The notes: generated by a model from the sequence alone, not told the origin. A stretch of DNA of 64,000 bases from Escherichia coli (GCF_003018255.1 NZ_CP027440.1); one strand, 5' to 3'; shown: positions 38,253-48,004, counted from the stretch's first letter. Translations and numbers: made by a program.

Positions 38253-39105
38253 TCATCCGTTAGGGATTTATGAAAAAGCGCTGGCGAAAGATCTCTCCTG
38301 GCCGGAGCGGCTGGTGCTGGCAAAAAGCTGTGGCTTTGATTTTGTCGAAATGTCGGTGGATGAAACCGACGAACGGCTCTCACGTCTTGACTGGAGCGCC
38401 GCACAACGTGCTTCGCTGGTCACTGCGATGATCGAAACGGGTGTTGGGATCCCGTCGATGTGCCTGTCCGCACATCGTCGCTTTCCTTTTGGTAGCCGTG
38501 ACGAGGCAGTGCGCGAACGGGCGCGGGAAATCATGAGTAAAGCGATTCGCCTGGCGCGCGATCTCGGCATTCGCACCATCCAGCTGGCGGGCTACGACGT
38601 CTATTACGAAGACCACGACGAAGGCACCCGGCAACGTTTTGCTGAAGGGCTGGCGTGGACAGTCGAACAGGCGGCGGCATCACAAGTAATGCTGGCGGTG
38701 GAGATTATGGATACTGCGTTTATGAACTCCATCAGCAAATGGAAAAAGTGGGACGAGATGCTCGCCTCGCCGTGGTTCACCGTCTACCCGGACGTCGGCA
38801 ACCTCAGCGCCTGGGGCAATGATGTTCCCGCCGAACTGAAACTGGGCATTGACCGTATCGCCGCGATCCACCTGAAAGATACTCAACCAGTCACCGAGCA
38901 AAGCCCCGGACAGTTCCGTGATGTGCCGTTTGGCGAAGGCTGCGTCGATTTCGTTGGCATCTTCAAAACGCTGCATGAACTGAACTATCGCGGTTCTTTC
39001 CTGATTGAGATGTGGACCGAAAAAGCCAAAGAGCCGGTGCTGGAGATTATTCAGGCGCGGCGCTGGATTGAAGCGCGTATGCAGGAGGCAGGTTTTATAT
39101 GTTAG
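38239..39105 (+). CDS. sgbU: L-ribulose-5-phosphate 3-epimerase (start codon uncertain)
   Basis: ORF frame opens at 38155 inside sgbH; conserved sequence begins ...[22 protein letters not shown]. Candidate starts are GTG 38239 or ATG 38224. Confidence 0.75.
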
Positions 39106-39794
39106 AGCAACTGAAAGCCGACGTGCTGGCGGCAAATCTGGCACTTCCCGCTCACCATCTGGTGACGTTCACCTGGGGCAATGTCAGCGCGGTAGACGAA
39201 GCGCGGCAATGGATGGTAATCAAACCTTCCGGCGTCGAGTACGACGTGATGACCGCCGACGATATGGTGGTGGTTGAGATAGCCAGCGGTAAGGTGGTGG
39301 AAGGCAGCAAAAAGCCCTCGTCCGACACGCCAACGCATCTGGCGCTTTACCGTCGCTATGCCGAAATCGGTGGCATTGTGCATACCCACTCGCGCCACGC
39401 CACCATCTGGTCGCAGGCCGGGCTGGATCTCCCCGCCTGGGGCACCACGCACGCCGATTATTTCTATGGTGCCATCCCCTGCACGCGACAGATGACCGCA
39501 GAGGAGATTAACGGCGAATATGAATATCAGACCGGCGAAGTGATCATTGAAACTTTCGAAGAACGCGGCAGGAGTCCGGCACAAATCCCGGCGGTGCTGG
39601 TGCATTCTCACGGCCCGTTCGCCTGGGGAAAAAATGCCGCCGATGCGGTGCATAATGCCGTAGTGCTGGAAGAGTGCGCCTATATGGGCCTGTTCTCGCG
39701 CCAGCTTGCGCCGCAGCTCCCTGCGATGCAAAACGAACTGTTAGATAAGCACTACCTGCGTAAGCATGGGGCCAATGCCTATTACGGGCAGTAA
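39099..39794 (+). CDS. sgbE: L-ribulose-5-phosphate 4-epimerase
   Basis: 231-aa [36 protein letters not shown] (AraD-like). Confidence 0.94.
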
Positions 39795-39825
39795 TCCCTC
39801 ACGCCGGGGCTTCATTGCCCCGGCA

Positions 39826-40641
39826 CTACGAATTGATATGTTCCTTGCTGTAACGTCGCTTCCACGCAGCTGGCGTTAAACCGGTGTGTTTGCGAAAAAT
39901 CTGTCGGAAATAGCCAACGTCATTAAACCCGCACAACGCAGCCACTTCAGTGAGCGATCGCGCTTCGCTAATTAACAGCTTTTCGGCTTCGCGCACTCGC
40001 TGGCGATGAATTGCTTCTGTTAACGTCAGATGAAACACCCGCCGGTAGACGCGCCCAAGATAATCGGCATTGCAGTACAGCTCGCGGGCTAAAAGCGCCG
40101 TAGAAAGCGGGCGATGATATTGCGTGCGAATCAGTTTCTGCGCTTTCCAGGCAAGCGTGGTACCTGCGGCATCGGCCTGTTCATCAAGACGCGCGTCACG
40201 GGTGAGCTGCTGCAAAATCAGCAGCACAATAAACTCCAGCGCCGGAGTGCGTTGATGCTTTTCCTGTTCGCTTAAGAACTGGCGAAACAGGGCCACCAGC
40301 GCCTGCGGATCGGCAACCTTCGTTTGTTGCGGCACGCTAAGATGAGTGAGCCAGCGCGGGTCGCTATCCGGCGCTTTAACCTCAAAATGCAGCCAGTAAA
40401 ATTTGAGATCGGCGGGAAAATCCTCTACCCCAACATGCTGTCGGTTCGGCCAGAGTAATAAACTCTCTCCCGCATCGACCAGAAATATCCGCTCTTCTTC
40501 CTGAATCGTTAATCGACCTTTTTCGACAAAGATAATTTCCCATGACTCCAGCCGCCTTGCCGGGTGCCTCCCTACGCCACGGGAAATAAATAATCCACCA
40601 TTTTGCACTTTAATCGGTAACGTCATGGATAATTCGAGCAT
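39826..40641 (-). CDS. AraC/XylS-family transcriptional regulator (accessory; absent from K-12 at this position)
   Basis: 271-aa ORF; cupin-like N domain and C-terminal AraC HTH (...EVAALCGFNDVGYFRQIFRKHTGLTPAAWKRR); alternative start MTLPIK at 40626. Confidence 0.8.
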   Translation of the reverse strand: MLELSMTLPIKVQNGGLFISRGVGRHPARRLESWEIIFVEKGRLTIQEEERIFLVDAGESLLLWPNRQHVGVEDFPADLKFYWLHFEVKAPDSDPRWLTHLSVPQQTKVADPQALVALFRQFLSEQEKHQRTPALEFIVLLILQQLTRDARLDEQADAAGTTLAWKAQKLIRTQYHRPLSTALLARELYCNADYLGRVYRRVFHLTLTEAIHRQRVREAEKLLISEARSLTEVAALCGFNDVGYFRQIFRKHTGLTPAAWKRRYSKEHINS

Positions 40642-40866
40642 TGATATGTAATTTCCCGCTTATTCATTAATGATTAAACACATTACCTTTTGATTATTAA
40701 TCAAAAACATTAATTTCACCTGATCCATTTCACACTTTTAAATTCAGGTCGGAATCGTCACCTTTTTTTACTCTTTTCTCGCCTTGTTGATATTCCCGTT
40801 CACGGCAGAATTAATCAGGTCATTGCAATAAAACTAAAAATTGCTCCCTATTCACGAGGAATATCT
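40642..40866. promoter_or_regulatory. Divergent promoter region of the accessory cassette, containing palindrome TTGATTA-T-TAATCAA
   Basis: AT-rich 225-bp intergenic region; 15-bp inverted repeat at about 40700-40714. Confidence 0.4.
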
Positions 40867-42267
40867 ATGACCTCTACACCGATTACTGCCGCTGATATCG
40901 CTAAAGGTAAAATTGACGATGCGTTATCTGTACGGGAAAAAATAGGCTACGGCCTGGGTGACGCAGGCGGCACCGTAATAACTTGCCTGATCATGAACTT
41001 TCTCACCTTTTTCTACACCGACGTTTTTGGCTTAACTCCGGCGCTGGTCGGCACGCTGTTTATTGCACTGCGCGTGTTTGATGCCATCTCCGACCCGGTG
41101 ATGGGCGTCATTGCCGACCGGACGCAAAGTCGCTGGGGGCGCTTTCGTCCGTGGCAGTTATGGATTGCCATTCCCATCGGCATTATCGGCATCCTGACGT
41201 TCACCGTGCCAGATGCCAGCATGGGAGTAAAAATCGCCTGGGCGTTCGGTACTTACCTGCTCCTTTCAGTCGGTTATACCGCCATCAACGTACCGTACTG
41301 CGCGCTGATCAACACCATGACCACCCGCCACAATGAAGTGATCTCCTGCCAGTCCTGGCGATTCGTTCTCTGCGGCGTAGCGGGATTTCTGGTTTCGGTT
41401 GGCCTGCCGTGGATGGTGGATCTCTTCGGTCAGGGTAATGCCGCGCGCGGCTATCAACTGGGCGTCGGCGTGCTGTGCGCCATTGCCGTGGTGATGTTCC
41501 TGTGCTGTTTCTTCTGGGTTCGTGAACGGGTGCCACTCTCCACAATGGGGAAATTTACCCTGCGCGAACATCTTGCCGGGCTGCGGAACAACGACCAACT
41601 GCTGCTGATGCTGGTCATGTCTTTCCTGCTGATTAACGTCTTTAATATTCGCGGCGGTGGGTATATGTACTTCATTACCTACGTCTTACAAGGCAGTACG
41701 GGCTACACGTCGCTGTTCTTCACCATGGTCACCTTCGCCTCCATTATCGGCTCGGTGATTGTCAGCCCGTTAACGCGGCGTTTCGATACCGTCAAAATTT
41801 ACTACTACACCAACCTGCTCCTCGCTGCGCTGGCGGTGTTGATGTGGTTCCTGCCTTCTGGCCCGGCTTATCAAACGCTGTGGCTGGCGGTGATCCTCGG
41901 TAATGGCGTGATTCTTGGCTTCACATTGCCACTGCACTTCTCATTGATGGCCTTTGCCGATGACTACGGCGAGTGGAAAACCCGCGTACGTTCTTCCGGC
42001 ATGAACTTCGCCTTCAATCTGTTTTTCATCAAGCTGGCATGGGCCTCCAGCGCCGGGATCATCAGCCTGCTGTTTATTTTTGTCGCCTACCAGCCAGGCG
42101 TGGAAAACCAGACCACCAGTTCGCTTGGCGGGATCACGGCGATGGAAACATTACTGCCTGCGCTATTCCACCTGCTGCTGGCAGGGGCGATCCGCTTTTG
42201 CAAACTCAATAACCCTATGATGTCACGCATTGCTAGCGACCTGCGTCAGCGTCATGTACAGCCTTAA
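40867..42267 (+). CDS. GPH-family glycoside/pentoside/hexuronide:cation symporter (MelB/YicJ-like)
   Basis: 466-aa 12-TM ORF with GPH signatures ([23 protein letters not shown]). Confidence 0.85.
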
Positions 42268-42277
42268 GGAGCACAAG

Positions 42278-44257
42278 ATGAACATTTCGGAAGTCGATCT
42301 GCATAAACTGACGGTCAGCGATCCGTTCCTCGGTCAGTACCAACAACTGGTCCGCGATGTGGTGATTCCTTATCAGTGGGACGCCTTGAACGATCGTATC
42401 CCAGAAGCGGAACCCAGCCATGCGATTGAAAACTTTCGCATTGCCGCAGGACTGCAAGACGGTGAATTTTACGGGATGGTGTTTCAGGACAGCGACGTCG
42501 CCAAATGGCTGGAAGCGGTAGCCTGGTCGCTGTGCCAGAAGCCGGATGCCGAACTGGAAAAAACCGCTGACGAGGTGATTGAACTGATCGCCTCCGCCCA
42601 GTGCGAAGATGGCTATCTCAATGCTTACTTTACGGTAAAAGCGCCCGAAGAACGCTGGAGCAATCTGGCGGAGTGTCATGAACTTTACTGCGCCGGTCAT
42701 CTGATTGAAGCCGGAGTCGCCTTCTTCCAGGCCACGGGAAAACGGCGCTTGCTGGAAGTGGTTTGCCGTCTGGCCGATCATATCGACAGCGTATTTGGTC
42801 CAGGTGAAAGTAAGTTACACGGTTATCCTGGTCACCCGGAAATTGAACTGGCACTAATGCGCCTGTATGAAGTGACCGAAGAGCCGCGCTACCTGGCGCT
42901 GACGAACTATTTTGTCGAACAGCGTGGTGCGCAACCGCACTATTACGACCAGGAATATGAAAAGCGCGGGCAGACCTCGCACTGGCACACCTACGGCCCG
43001 GCGTGGATGGTGAAAGATAAAGCCTACAGCCAAGCGCATTTGCCCATCGCACAGCAACAAACCGCCATCGGACATACAGTACGCTTTGTATATCTGATGA
43101 CTGGCGTCGCACATCTCGCGCGTTTAAGTCACGATGAAAGCAAGCGTCAGGATTGCCTGCGGCTGTGGAACAATATGGCCCAGCGTCAGTTATATATTAC
43201 CGGCGGCATTGGCTCACAAAGCAGCGGCGAAGCGTTCAGCAGCGATTACGATCTGCCGAATGACACGGTTTACGCCGAAAGTTGTGCTTCCATCGGCCTG
43301 ATGATGTTCGCCCGGCGAATGCTGGAAATGGAAGGCGACAGTCAATATGCCGATGTGATGGAGCGCGCACTGTACAACACTGTGCTCGGCGGCATGGCGC
43401 TGGATGGCAAACATTTCTTCTACGTTAATCCGCTGGAAGTGCATCCAAAAACGTTAAAATTCAACCATATCTACGATCACGTTAAGCCGATCCGCCAGCG
43501 TTGGTTTGGTTGCGCTTGTTGTCCGCCAAATATCGCCCGCGTGCTAACCTCGATTGGTCATTATCTCTACACGCCGCGTGAAGATGCGTTGTATATCAAC
43601 ATCTACGCAGGAAACAGCATGGAAGTGCCGGTAGAAAATGGCACGCTGCGTCTGCGGGTTAGCGGAAACTATCCGTGGCAGGAACAGGTGACAATTGCGG
43701 TTGAATCGCCCCAGCCGGTGCGTCATACGCTGGCTTTACGTCTGCCGGACTGGTGCACACAGCCGCAGATCATATTGAATGGGGAAGAGGTCGAGCAGGA
43801 TATTCGTAAAGGGTATTTGCACATTACCCGCGAATGGCAGGAGGGCGACACGCTGAATCTGACTTTGCCAATGCCGGTACGTCGCGTTTACGGTAACCCT
43901 CTGGTGCGTCACGTCGCCGGAAAAGTGGCGATTCAGCGCGGCCCGCTGGTGTATTGCCTGGAACAGGCCGACAACGGCGAGTCACTGCATAATCTGTGGC
44001 TGCCCGCCGATGCGCCATTTACGACATTTGAAGGTAAGGGATTGTTCCGCCATAAGATCTTAATCCAGGCACCGGGTTATCGGTATGAACAGAGCAATCC
44101 AGAGCAGCAACCGCTGTGGCATTACGACAGCGCGCCAGCCAAACGCCAGCCGCAAACCCTGACCTTTATCCCGTGGTTTAGCTGGGCCAACCGGGGTGAA
44201 GGCGAAATGCGGATCTGGGTGAATGAGGAAAAGCATTGCCATCCGGAGGTTGGATAA
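42278..44257 (+). CDS. Glycoside hydrolase family 127-like protein (DUF1680; putative beta-L-arabinofuranosidase)
   Basis: ORF frame from 42230; likely start MNISEVDLHK at 42278 after RBS AAGGA; contains WFGCACCPPN cysteine motif typical of HypBA1-like GH127. Confidence 0.75.
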   Translation: MNISEVDLHKLTVSDPFLGQYQQLVRDVVIPYQWDALNDRIPEAEPSHAIENFRIAAGLQDGEFYGMVFQDSDVAKWLEAVAWSLCQKPDAELEKTADEVIELIASAQCEDGYLNAYFTVKAPEERWSNLAECHELYCAGHLIEAGVAFFQATGKRRLLEVVCRLADHIDSVFGPGESKLHGYPGHPEIELALMRLYEVTEEPRYLALTNYFVEQRGAQPHYYDQEYEKRGQTSHWHTYGPAWMVKDKAYSQAHLPIAQQQTAIGHTVRFVYLMTGVAHLARLSHDESKRQDCLRLWNNMAQRQLYITGGIGSQSSGEAFSSDYDLPNDTVYAESCASIGLMMFARRMLEMEGDSQYADVMERALYNTVLGGMALDGKHFFYVNPLEVHPKTLKFNHIYDHVKPIRQRWFGCACCPPNIARVLTSIGHYLYTPREDALYINIYAGNSMEVPVENGTLRLRVSGNYPWQEQVTIAVESPQPVRHTLALRLPDWCTQPQIILNGEEVEQDIRKGYLHITREWQEGDTLNLTLPMPVRRVYGNPLVRHVAGKVAIQRGPLVYCLEQADNGESLHNLWLPADAPFTTFEGKGLFRHKILIQAPGYRYEQSNPEQQPLWHYDSAPAKRQPQTLTFIPWFSWANRGEGEMRIWVNEEKHCHPEVG

Positions 44258-44326
44258 GGCGCTCGCGCCGCATCCAACGTAGGGAGCACATTGCCTGATG
44301 CGACGCTTAACGTGTCTTATCAGGCC
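44243..44326. repeat. REP-like palindromic units at the right edge of the accessory cassette
   Basis: GGATAAGGCG...CGCATCC and GCCTGATGCGACGCTTAACGTGTCTTATCAGGCC. Confidence 0.65.
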
Positions 44327-44377
44327 CACGAGTCGGTGCGAGAGCGTAGGCCAGCCGCACCGACATCCACCGGTAAA

Positions 44378-45118
44378 TTAAAAACGCCAGCTCACGCCGG
44401 TGACAAAGGTAAAACTCTCATTACGATCAATCATCGGGCTGTCGGTAATCTCTTCCGGCAGCTCGCTGTATCCGGCGCTCGCCATCAATACGACGTGCTC
44501 TCCTATCGGGTATTTTGCCGTCAGGCTGACATAAGGCACCCAGGCATCCTGCGCGGAATAACTTGCCAGACCGCTACGACGGGACTCACTCTCTGAAATG
44601 CCATAGTAATAGTCACTGAAATTCTCGTCATAATAGAGAACGCCCAGCGCAGGTGTCAGCGACAGGCGACCTATCTGCATTTTGTGGAATACCGATAGCT
44701 CCCCCACCCAGCCGTTGCTGTTATCCAGAACGTCCGCAGCCGCAGAGGCTTTCACGGTTCCCCAACGCTCGTGGTGATACCAGGCAACCCCCGCCATAGC
44801 CGTACTATCACGCTTATCAAGCTGTTGCATGGCATAATCGTCATTATCGGTAGGGTCAAATTCCAGCGGCATCCAGGATGCGGTCAGGCTAAGTTCATTT
44901 TTTTCACTTTGCGACAGAATAAAACCTAACGTGGTCTGACGAACATAAAAAGTATCACCTTCATAACTAATCAGCGGAATTGCCTTTGTATTTTCATTAT
45001 AACCGCGATAAGGCGATTCATTATAAGCCGCACCAGCACCAATGGATAATTCAGAAGCAGTTGCGCTTGCCATAAAAGGCAACGCAAATAACGCCACAAT
45101 ATTGCGGTTAATTAACAT
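44378..45118 (-). CDS. yiaT: MipA/OmpV-family outer membrane protein YiaT
   Basis: 246-aa ORF with signal peptide, ending in aromatic F. Confidence 0.88.
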   Translation of the reverse strand: MLINRNIVALFALPFMASATASELSIGAGAAYNESPYRGYNENTKAIPLISYEGDTFYVRQTTLGFILSQSEKNELSLTASWMPLEFDPTDNDDYAMQQLDKRDSTAMAGVAWYHHERWGTVKASAAADVLDNSNGWVGELSVFHKMQIGRLSLTPALGVLYYDENFSDYYYGISESESRRSGLASYSAQDAWVPYVSLTAKYPIGEHVVLMASAGYSELPEEITDSPMIDRNESFTFVTGVSWRF

Positions 45119-45241
45119 GTCCGGTATTCCATTTTAAAATAAGATAAAAAAGAGTCGGCATAGTAATGCTTACAATTTCTCCGGTGCAAGATTCATATTT
45201 ATATAGTAATATATAAAATTATATATAATTGGGCTGTTGCG

Positions 45242-46216
45242 ATGACAAAATTACAACTTAAGTACCGGGAGTTAAAAATTATCTCGGTAATCGCTGCCAG
45301 TGAAAATATCAGCCATGCCGCGACTGTACTTGGCATCGCACAGGCCAACGTCAGCAAATATCTTGCTGATTTTGAATCAAAAGTGGGTTTAAAAGTCTTT
45401 GACCGAACCACCCGACAGCTGATGCTCACACCTTTTGGCACCGTGCTGTTACCGTATATCAACGACATGCTGGACAGAAACGAGCAGCTTAATAATTTTA
45501 TTGCAGATTATAAGCATGAGAAACGTGGTCGGGTCACTATCTATGCACCAACCGGCATAATTACCTATTTATCCAAACATGTAATCGATAAAATTAAAGA
45601 TATCGGTGATATCACCTTATCGCTAAAAACCTGCAATCTTGAGCGTAATGCCTTTTATGAAGGCGTCGAATTTCCCGATGATTGTGATGTTTTAATCAGC
45701 TACGCCCAACCAAAAGATGAATCGCTGGTTGCCAGTTTTATTACCCAATATGCCGTAACCGCTTATGCCAGCCAGCGCTATCTTGAGAAACATCCCATTA
45801 GCCGTCCTGACGAACTCGAACATCACTCCTGTATTTTGATCGACTCGATGATGATCGACGACGCGAATATCTGGCGCTTCAACGTCGCCGGGAGTAAAGA
45901 GGTGCGGGATTATCGCGTGAAGGGAAATTACGTTTGCGACAACACGCAATCTGCGCTGGAGCTGGCACGAAATCACCTGGGGATTGTGTTTGCGCCAGAC
46001 AAAAGTGTGCAGAGCGACCTGCAAGACGGCACGCTGGTGCCCTGCTTTCAGCACCCGTATGAATGGTGGCTGGATCTGGTGGCTATCTTCCGTAAACGGG
46101 AATACCAGCCCTGGCGGGTCCAGTATGTGCTGGATGAAATGCTGCGTGAAATTCGCCACCAGCTTGCTCAGTCGCAGCAACTGCGGCCTGAACAAGCGGC
46201 GGAAAGCGAAGATTAA
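45242..46216 (+). CDS. yiaU: LysR-family transcriptional regulator YiaU
   Basis: 324-aa ORF with N-terminal LysR HTH; divergent from yiaT. Confidence 0.88.
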
Positions 46217-47791: not shown

Positions 47792-48004
47792 GTGTGCAGC
47801 CTGGCTTTTCAACAGTGCGAGGCTTATCATATTGAAATAATGGAACTATTGGCCAAACTAATGAATAACTCCAGTAAAACATCCACAGTACAGATTAAGC
47901 GTATTAAACCTTCAATTATCTACCGTTTATTGCTGATTGGCCTCGGAACGCCAATGGTGATTTATGGCCTGGTTCGCCCGCTCACCATCGAAACGCGAGA
48001 TTAA
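47792..48004 (+). CDS. Hypothetical small protein with C-terminal hydrophobic segment
   Basis: 70-aa ORF (internal Met starts possible) in an otherwise non-coding gap; predicted TM helix IIYRLLLIGLGTPMVIYGLV; no family recognised. Confidence 0.25.
   Translation: MCSLAFQQCEAYHIEIMELLAKLMNNSSKTSTVQIKRIKPSIIYRLLLIGLGTPMVIYGLVRPLTIETRD

Follow-up and report, generated by a model that had tools for sequence, protein, structure and literature searches.

The chromosome of the Escherichia coli strain deposited as GCF_003018255.1 (NZ_CP027440.1) carries, between sgbE and yiaT, a cassette of three genes that raises two questions: what the genes do together, and whether some E. coli gained them or others lost them. 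The cassette was studied in a 64,000-nucleotide stretch of one strand (the window; all positions are counted from its first letter), where it occupies positions 39826–44257. It encodes an AraC-family regulator, a symporter of the GPH family and a glycosidase of family GH127 (hereafter the trio). The trio is probably an enterobacterial operon, self-contained and inherited vertically, for the use of small beta-L-arabinofuranosides, in which activator-controlled import and cytoplasmic hydrolysis would feed L-arabinose catabolism. K-12 and about half of E. coli have lost the trio by deletion. Its members are annotated correctly by family in public records, and the function proposed here is predicted from homology. 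The genes of the locus are laid out as follows:

39099–39794: sgbE (araD-like), the left flank, with its stop codon at 39792–39794
39826–40641, minus strand: AraC-family regulator gene (271 amino acids), stop codon at 39826–39828
40642–40866: divergent control region, 225 bp and AT-rich
40867–42267, plus strand: GPH symporter gene (466 amino acids), stop codon TAA at 42265–42267
42278–44257, plus strand: GH127 glycosidase gene (659 amino acids), stop codon TAA at 44255–44257
44378–45118, minus strand: yiaT, the right flank

The initial annotation, made from the sequence alone, had placed three open reading frames (ORFs) here, an AraC-family regulator divergent from a GPH symporter and a GH127 glycosidase, and the coordinates, RefSeq annotation and profile matches bear this out. 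The complete genome of E. coli strain JNE23-011 is 100% identical to the window across positions 39000–45200, and between araD/sgbE and yiaT its RefSeq labels read AraC family transcriptional regulator, MFS transporter and GH127 protein.

Direction of change at the sgbE–yiaT junction

K-12 had been described in the initial annotation as having sgbE followed directly by yiaT. Intact cassette genes are indeed missing there, but the K-12 genome (NC_000913.3) holds fragments between the two genes, namely the pseudogenes ysaC (b4648) and ysaD (b4649), which the RefSeq prokaryotic genome annotation pipeline (PGAP) describes as an AraC family regulator fragment without its N-terminus and a hypothetical protein fragment. 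Using BLAST and alignment of the junctions, we found that K-12 keeps window positions 39000–39929, then 43951–44140, and then 44351 onward. Both pseudogenes align to the ends of the cassette: ysaC is the last 102–104 bp (3′ end) of the regulator gene, and ysaD is a 190-bp stretch from within the GH127 gene (43951–44140). Two deletions distinguish K-12 from the window:

39930–43950, deletion 1: 4021 bp, with one end within the regulator gene and the other within the GH127 gene; blunt, with no microhomology
44141–44351, deletion 2: about 211 bp, removing the last ~39 GH127 codons and both repetitive extragenic palindromic (REP) units; bounded by the 7-bp direct repeat GCCAGCC

Fragments of the first and last cassette genes cannot be left behind by an insertion, so the K-12 arrangement must have arisen by deletion. 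Because other genera also have the same gene order with sgbE and yiaT, these sequence comparisons indicate that the cassette is ancestral and that K-12 is a two-deletion derivative. The ysaD piece differs from intact alleles at 19–21 positions (about 11%; 88.9% identity), compared with 96–99% identity in the flanks, and the differences fall 6:3:12 by codon position, which is marginally non-uniform. Introgression was considered as the source of this excess divergence and rejected, as the raw divergence of ~0.11 equals the synonymous divergence (dS) of 0.07–0.15 among intact E. coli alleles. The same equality makes the divergence of ysaD what is expected from neutral drift of a fragment in an old deletion allele.

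Relatives beyond E. coli were collected in a scan of one genome per species, which gave 263, and the best 80 of these 263 (72–97% protein identity) were compared in detail. Of these 80 loci, 69 contained the trio in the same orientation, with the regulator on the minus strand and the GPH and GH127 genes on the plus strand, and all 69 belonged to Enterobacterales. The genera include Escherichia, Citrobacter, Klebsiella, Raoultella, Enterobacter, Lelliottia, Leclercia, Kluyvera and Kosakonia, as well as Phytobacter, Pantoea, Buttiauxella, Salmonella diarizonae, Yokenella, Trabulsiella, Mangrovibacter and Rouxiella. The left neighbour was sgbE in 25 loci and the right neighbour yiaT in 20; both were present in 10, and this full order of sgbE, trio and yiaT was found in Citrobacter, Enterobacter, Lelliottia and Huaxiibacter. 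Differing neighbours often came from the same chromosomal district (avtA, aldB, yiaY). In genera without sgbE/yiaT adjacency, no further carbohydrate-active enzymes appeared among the neighbours sampled (diguanylate cyclase, AI-2E transporter, ROK kinase, aldB, yiaY, sstT, avtA), and a test for nesting of the trio in a mobile element in most genera was negative.

Selection on the trio was assessed from nonsynonymous divergence (dN) and dS, calculated by the Nei–Gojobori method both within E. coli and between genera. For all three genes dN/dS was 0.00–0.13 (regulator 0.00–0.13, transporter 0.03–0.10, glycosidase 0.02–0.08), and within E. coli the cassette genes showed ratios of 0.00–0.10 with dS of 0.07–0.15. 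Against Citrobacter youngae, dN was 0.074 for GH127 and 0.062 for the GPH transporter, next to 0.059 for SgbE. Divergence of the trio tracks that of sgbE, and the sequence data indicate vertical inheritance under purifying selection.

Some relatives departed from this pattern. In E. whittamii (locus L006, 3657–4552) the trio is present without sgbE, and sgbU runs directly into the terminator hairpin and the regulator gene, so that a further module has been lost independently at the locus. An assembly labelled 'Chryseobacterium sp. 18061' (L029) has the enterobacterial trio and is 93–95% identical over about 14 kb to 'Citrobacter sp. 18056' (L027) from the same project; it is probably mislabelled or contaminated. 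Several Bradyrhizobium spp. (L076–L080, L083) carry a GH127 gene whose product shares 72% identity with the E. coli enzyme, without GPH and AraC partners, which makes it a candidate for inter-phylum transfer. In one of them (L078, 4701–8953) the gene lies directly downstream of a gene for a 698-amino-acid S9 (oligopeptidase B-like) peptidase, a weak hint at glycopeptide (hydroxyproline-arabinose, Hyp-Ara) substrates.

Within E. coli, 5426 complete genomes were surveyed for alleles of the locus:

Cassette interior present: 2313 of 5426 (43%), at 95–99% identity, always chromosomal
K-12-type scar: 2461 of 5426 (45%), at 98–100% identity, also in strain 042 and O111:H8
sgbE joined directly to aldB, without the cassette and yiaTUVW: 481 of 5426 (9%), e.g., Nissle 1917
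Cassette-positive, whole yiaK–sgbE operon absent, yiaJ remnant abutting the regulator gene: 427 genomes, including O157:H7 and O145:H28
Cassette-positive, hicAB and a type I restriction gene replacing yiaTUVW directly downstream of the GH127 gene: 490 genomes (L004, 9315–11481)

Nearly all positive genomes held a single copy (median 1, maximum 2 matching places). The intact trio was found in O157:H7, the B-lineage strain B-StaR and an O25b:H4-ST131 strain, and was absent from K-12 and Nissle 1917. The region is a hotspot of module loss in which the trio behaves as an independent module, since O157:H7 has the trio without sgbE and K-12 has sgbE without the trio. The yiaJ remnant in the deletion of yiaK–sgbE (the 2,3-diketo-L-gulonate/L-xylulose operon) measures 141 bp (L003 and L088, at about 1734–1876 in L088). 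Comparison of sgbE–yiaT junctions across E. coli, suggested as a check in the initial annotation, showed that the trio does vary, but that the K-12 type is a deletion scar. The term 'accessory cassette' used there is fair in the pangenome sense only (43% of genomes); the direction of insertion that it implied was wrong, given the K-12 remnants and the cross-genus synteny.

Properties of the three proteins and the control region

The glycosidase had been read in the initial annotation as a protein of 675 amino acids, which was a mechanical ORF from a TTG at 42230 that overlaps the end of the transporter gene. The RefSeq start is the ATG at 42278, giving 659 amino acids, and orthologues of other genera align from residues 1–3 of this form. 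The intergenic gap to the transporter gene is 10 bp. A Shine-Dalgarno sequence, AAGGAG (42266–42271), overlaps the transporter stop codon and lies six bases ahead of the GH127 ATG, so that the transporter and GH127 genes probably form a two-gene operon with translational coupling. The protein has the complete GH127 architecture of CAZy, an (alpha/alpha)6 catalytic domain followed by middle and C-terminal beta-sandwich domains, with Pfam matches to PF07944 (3.8e-111, residues 12–427), PF20736 (1.3e-23, residues 438–532) and PF20737 (3.6e-25, residues 534–649). Its N-terminus (MNISEVDLHKLTVSDPF...) has no hydrophobic signal-like stretch, and for this reason the enzyme is presumably cytoplasmic, like the beta-L-arabinofuranosidase HypBA1 of Bifidobacterium longum.

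The closest solved structure is the Geobacillus beta-L-arabinofuranosidase 4QJY (E 1.2e-234, 784 bits, 54% identity over 630 aligned positions), and HypBA1 is the second solved relative (E 2.4e-151, 509 bits). Differently named GH127 or related structures scored far lower: 6EX6, a 'six-hairpin glycosidase', and 5MQO gave 388 and 317 bits. Glycosidase residues E318, E334, C336, C414 and C415 align to HypBA1 E322, E338, C340, C417 and C418, and all five are present in the protein translated from the window, as the initial assignment to GH127 presupposed. The Zn site of HypBA1, which we take to consist of Glu338, Cys340, Cys417 and Cys418, has all of its equivalents conserved (E334, C336, C414, C415). 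Also conserved are the equivalents (C414 and E318) of the nucleophile Cys417 and the acid/base Glu322 of HypBA1, whose Zn site is of the Cys3-Glu type (PMC8106489). Homology, including the 54% identity to 4QJY, supports assignment of the enzyme as a putative beta-L-arabinofuranosidase.

The transporter matched the GPH model TIGR00792 over residues 25–462 with 332.4 bits (cut-off 231.35). Four more specific models scored under their cut-offs: YagG (354 vs. 610), YicJ (323 vs. 836), MelB (207 vs. 456) and GusB (191 vs. 528). The protein is therefore a GPH carrier (TC 2.A.2) of a distinct subfamily and no orthologue of YagG, YicJ, MelB or GusB. Its alignment to MelB structures (E 5e-37) spans the full length; the MelB cation-site residues Asp55 and Asp59 are conserved as D72 and D76, and MelB Asn58 is replaced by Ser75.

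The regulator combines an AraC-like cupin ligand-binding domain (AraC_binding, 2.5e-9, residues 26–132) with a C-terminal double helix-turn-helix of the AraC/XylS family (HTH_18, 4e-19, residues 184–263). Its best NCBIfam model is AraC, with 61.5 bits against an equivalog cut-off of 208, so it is no orthologue of AraC itself. The divergent control region was examined by phylogenetic footprinting across more than 15 genera (27 loci). Most of its 225 bp varies freely, and a few blocks are kept across genera:

40691–40703: palindrome core TGATTATTAATCA, conserved in most genera
40719–40734: CCTGA-N6-TCACA, conserved block, putative CRP-like site or regulator half-site
40747–40772: long conserved block GGTCGGAATCGTCACC-TTTTTTTACT, candidate activator site
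40782–40789: CCTTGTTG, conserved, containing TTGTTG (40784–40789), candidate −35 element
40806–40811: CAGAAT, conserved, 16 bp after the −35 candidate, candidate −10 element

The palindrome core belongs to a perfect 9+9 palindrome, TTTTGATTA-T-TAATCAAAA, at 40688–40706, which may be an operator or the promoter of the regulator gene. Visual comparison with the consensus sequences of CRP, Fur, ArgR and the LacI family produced no persuasive match. Within the 40719–40734 block the conserved part is GA-TC...TCACA, and the window sequence matches the CRP core at 8 of 10 positions. A consensus scan of the control region found no near-consensus sigma-70 promoter, which fits dependence on an activator. 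TTGTTG and CAGAAT would accordingly be weak −35 and −10 elements, with GGTCGGAATCGTCACC-TTTTTTTACT as a putative AraC-type activator site next to the −35. On this reading transcription is predicted to start near 40818, and the CRP-like element would sit around −91.5, in a layout reminiscent of araBAD.

Structured elements were also found at both ends of the cassette:

39803–39824: G+C-rich hairpin GCCGGGGC-TTCATT-GCCCCGGC, read from the sequence between the convergent stops of sgbE and the regulator gene
44248–44326: inverted pair of REP units, resembling a bacterial interspersed mosaic element (BIME), running from the last bases of the GH127 gene into the sequence downstream
44332–44364: a further hairpin, beyond the end of yiaT

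The left hairpin is likely a bidirectional terminator, and its sequence is kept in the K-12 scar. At the right junction, the REP units noted in the initial annotation were recovered as inverted repeats and as a match to Rfam RF02564 (naRNA4, a REP-derived family; 67.8 bits, gathering score 59.5), the only family found in an Rfam scan of 39000–45500. The two REP palindromes are in inverted orientation, and the first contains the last two GH127 sense codons and the stop codon (44248–44257). Allelic C-termini of GH127 differ, with lengths of 659, 656 and 654 amino acids in loci L002, L003 and L004. These differing ends, with the stop codon inside a REP, show that REP and junction turnover has reshaped the tail of the protein past the conserved ...WVNE. 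Farther downstream in the window, a hypothetical ORF of 47 amino acids is annotated between yiaW and aldB (47861–48004), and a Fic-family gene lies past aldB (49869 onward).

Predicted function and competing explanations

In the proposed mechanism, the AraC-family protein would sense the glycoside, or L-arabinose, via its cupin domain and activate a weak promoter between the divergent genes, driving transcription of the transporter–hydrolase operon. The GPH symporter would bring a small beta-L-arabinofuranoside into the cell with a cation, and the cytoplasmic GH127 cysteine glycosidase would free L-arabinose, which could enter the araBAD pathway. The most likely substrates would be beta-L-arabinobiose (beta-Ara2) or similar products released by other organisms from plant hydroxyproline-rich glycoproteins or arabinans. 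The turnover of plant material could supply them, as could other microbes, e.g., bifidobacteria, whose extracellular GH121 frees beta-Ara2 (PMC8106489), through scavenging or cross-feeding. Uptake and hydrolysis of a beta-L-arabinofuranoside-type glycoside, as the initial annotation predicted, is supported as far as sequence goes by the catalytic residues and by the closest solved relatives, which are beta-L-arabinofuranosidases. The sequence comparisons show the gene content, domain architecture, catalytic residues, purifying selection, synteny, conservation of the control region and the shared two-deletion scar; for the substrate and inducer, the mode of activation, the promoter and CRP sites and the location of the enzyme in the cytoplasm we rely on inference.

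Two other histories of the cassette were considered, and both appear very improbable. One is that it is a horizontally acquired island between sgbE and yiaT, with K-12 showing the original empty site. K-12 and 57% of complete E. coli genomes lack its intact genes, REP units stand at its right junction, and the 72%-identical Bradyrhizobium proteins show that the GH127 gene can cross phyla. However, the supposedly empty site holds the regulator 3′ fragment and the 190-bp GH127 fragment, which only deletion explains, the same flanks recur in Citrobacter, Enterobacter, Lelliottia and Huaxiibacter, and divergence follows that of sgbE. The G+C content of the cassette (53–56%) is the same as that of its flanks, the record annotation places no integrase, insertion sequence (IS) element or tRNA gene beside it, and it has no flanking direct repeats. 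The locus thus lacks the marks of a genomic island, mobility genes included, and insertion was rejected on the K-12 remnants, cross-genus synteny, composition and dS. The other history is that of a decaying remnant without current function in E. coli. Several independent losses have struck the locus (the K-12 scar in 2461 genomes, the sgbE–aldB junction in 481), some records give the regulator no name beyond 'helix-turn-helix domain-containing protein', and among the best 80 of 263 relatives the only other Escherichia were E. whittamii and one Escherichia sp., though copies would be expected near the top. Against decay, 2313 genomes have all three ORFs intact, with 95–99% identity, dN/dS stays at 0.00–0.10 within E. 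coli while dS reaches 0.07–0.15, and the control region is conserved across genera.

It is also unlikely, if less far-fetched, that the same architecture and mechanism serve another substrate, such as a different GH127-type furanoside, a hydroxyproline-linked arabinoside or an arabinofuranoside of a plant secondary metabolite. GH127 is polyspecific and the aceric acid hydrolase model matches partially; GPH carriers typically accept glycosides with varied aglycones; the S9 prolyl-oligopeptidase-family gene beside the Bradyrhizobium GH127 hints at glycopeptides; and 54% identity to the nearest characterised enzyme leaves the +1 subsite room to change. Yet the two closest solved relatives are both beta-L-arabinofuranosidases, the catalytic and Zn sites are wholly conserved, and matches to enzymes of other specificity are far weaker (388 and 317 vs. 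784 and 509 bits). Several points do weigh against an operon for small beta-L-arabinofuranosides. E. coli has, to our knowledge, no enzyme that makes the substrate extracellularly, so an outside source must be assumed. GH127 holds further specificities, including 3,6-anhydro-D-galactosidases and aceric acid hydrolase, whose model is the sole NCBIfam match of the glycosidase (451 bits, well under the cut-off of 950). The putative promoter, CRP and activator sites are known from conservation only. The bifidobacterial system imports beta-Ara2 by an ABC transporter, not a GPH symporter (PMC8106489), and a survey of the searchable literature turned up no biochemical, genetic or expression data on any enterobacterial member. 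Searches on ysaC/ysaD, Ara127N and the biochemistry of GH127 in E. coli or enterobacteria yielded comparative-genomic mentions alone.

With an operon for small beta-L-arabinofuranosides as the preferred reading, we tentatively suggest that ~43% of E. coli may own a private L-arabinose route, importing beta-L-arabinofuranosides that other gut or plant-associated microbes free from dietary extensins or arabinans. The near-even, species-wide split between the trio and one old deletion allele could then reflect niche-dependent selection with relevance to pathogen fitness, although this is a doubtful extension. As supporting hints, L-arabinose metabolism has been linked to the fitness of enterohaemorrhagic E. 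coli (EHEC) (PMC11127945), and in a comparison of inflammatory bowel disease (IBD) isolates a GH127 gene co-segregated with invasiveness, with beta-Ara2 hydrolysis ascribed by reference to HypBA1 (PMC11879602). A study of L-arabinose in O157:H7 stated that E. coli is unable to access L-arabinofuranosyl (L-Araf) residues directly (PMC8489885); a private route, if true, would contradict this. That statement takes no account of the GH127 operon, which is intact in O157:H7 (L088). The trio is a candidate carbohydrate route, in many E. coli lineages of medical or laboratory importance, that K-12-based physiology misses, because K-12 lacks it. As a clean natural presence/absence polymorphism (one deletion allele at 45%, the intact form at 43%), it is suited to fitness and cross-feeding experiments.

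Relation to known systems

The nearest parallel in layout is melR–melAB, in which an AraC-family regulator is divergent from an operon of a GPH symporter and a cytoplasmic glycosidase. The trio shares the divergent AraC-family regulator and the pairing of a GPH symporter with a predicted cytoplasmic glycosidase, and its transporter is homologous to MelB. Unlike in mel, the transporter comes first and the hydrolase second, and the enzyme is a GH127 cysteine glycosidase instead of a GH4 alpha-galactosidase. The regulator scores weakly against the MelR model (38.7 bits), and the predicted operator sites are unrelated. The yicJI and uidAB units, each a GPH carrier with a cytoplasmic glycosidase, follow the same logic of import and then hydrolysis, and the transporter scores 323–354 bits against the YicJ and YagG models; these scores are under the curated cut-offs and indicate no orthology, and the glycosidase family and the type of regulator differ.

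For the enzyme, the closest solved relative at full length is the GH127 of Geobacillus stearothermophilus (PDB 4QJY/4QK0). In that Gram-positive thermophile the gene belongs to a large arabinan-utilisation cluster, in contrast to the minimal three-gene unit described here. HypBA1/HypBA2 of B. longum offers the closest likeness in chemistry, as an intracellular GH127 acting on an imported beta-L-arabinofuranosyl disaccharide (predicted in our case), with equivalents of Cys417, Glu322 and the Cys3-Glu Zn site kept. B. longum, however, has an ABC importer and an extracellular GH121 enzyme that releases the substrate (PMC8106489). In the enterobacterial trio the transporter is a GPH symporter and the regulator is of the AraC type; a releasing enzyme is missing, so that the substrate would be obtained by scavenging or cross-feeding. 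Conceptually nothing here is new: enzyme family, transporter family and regulatory layout are all known, and the K-12 scar was already annotated. By analogy, the trio may best be described as melR–melAB architecture with HypBA1 chemistry.

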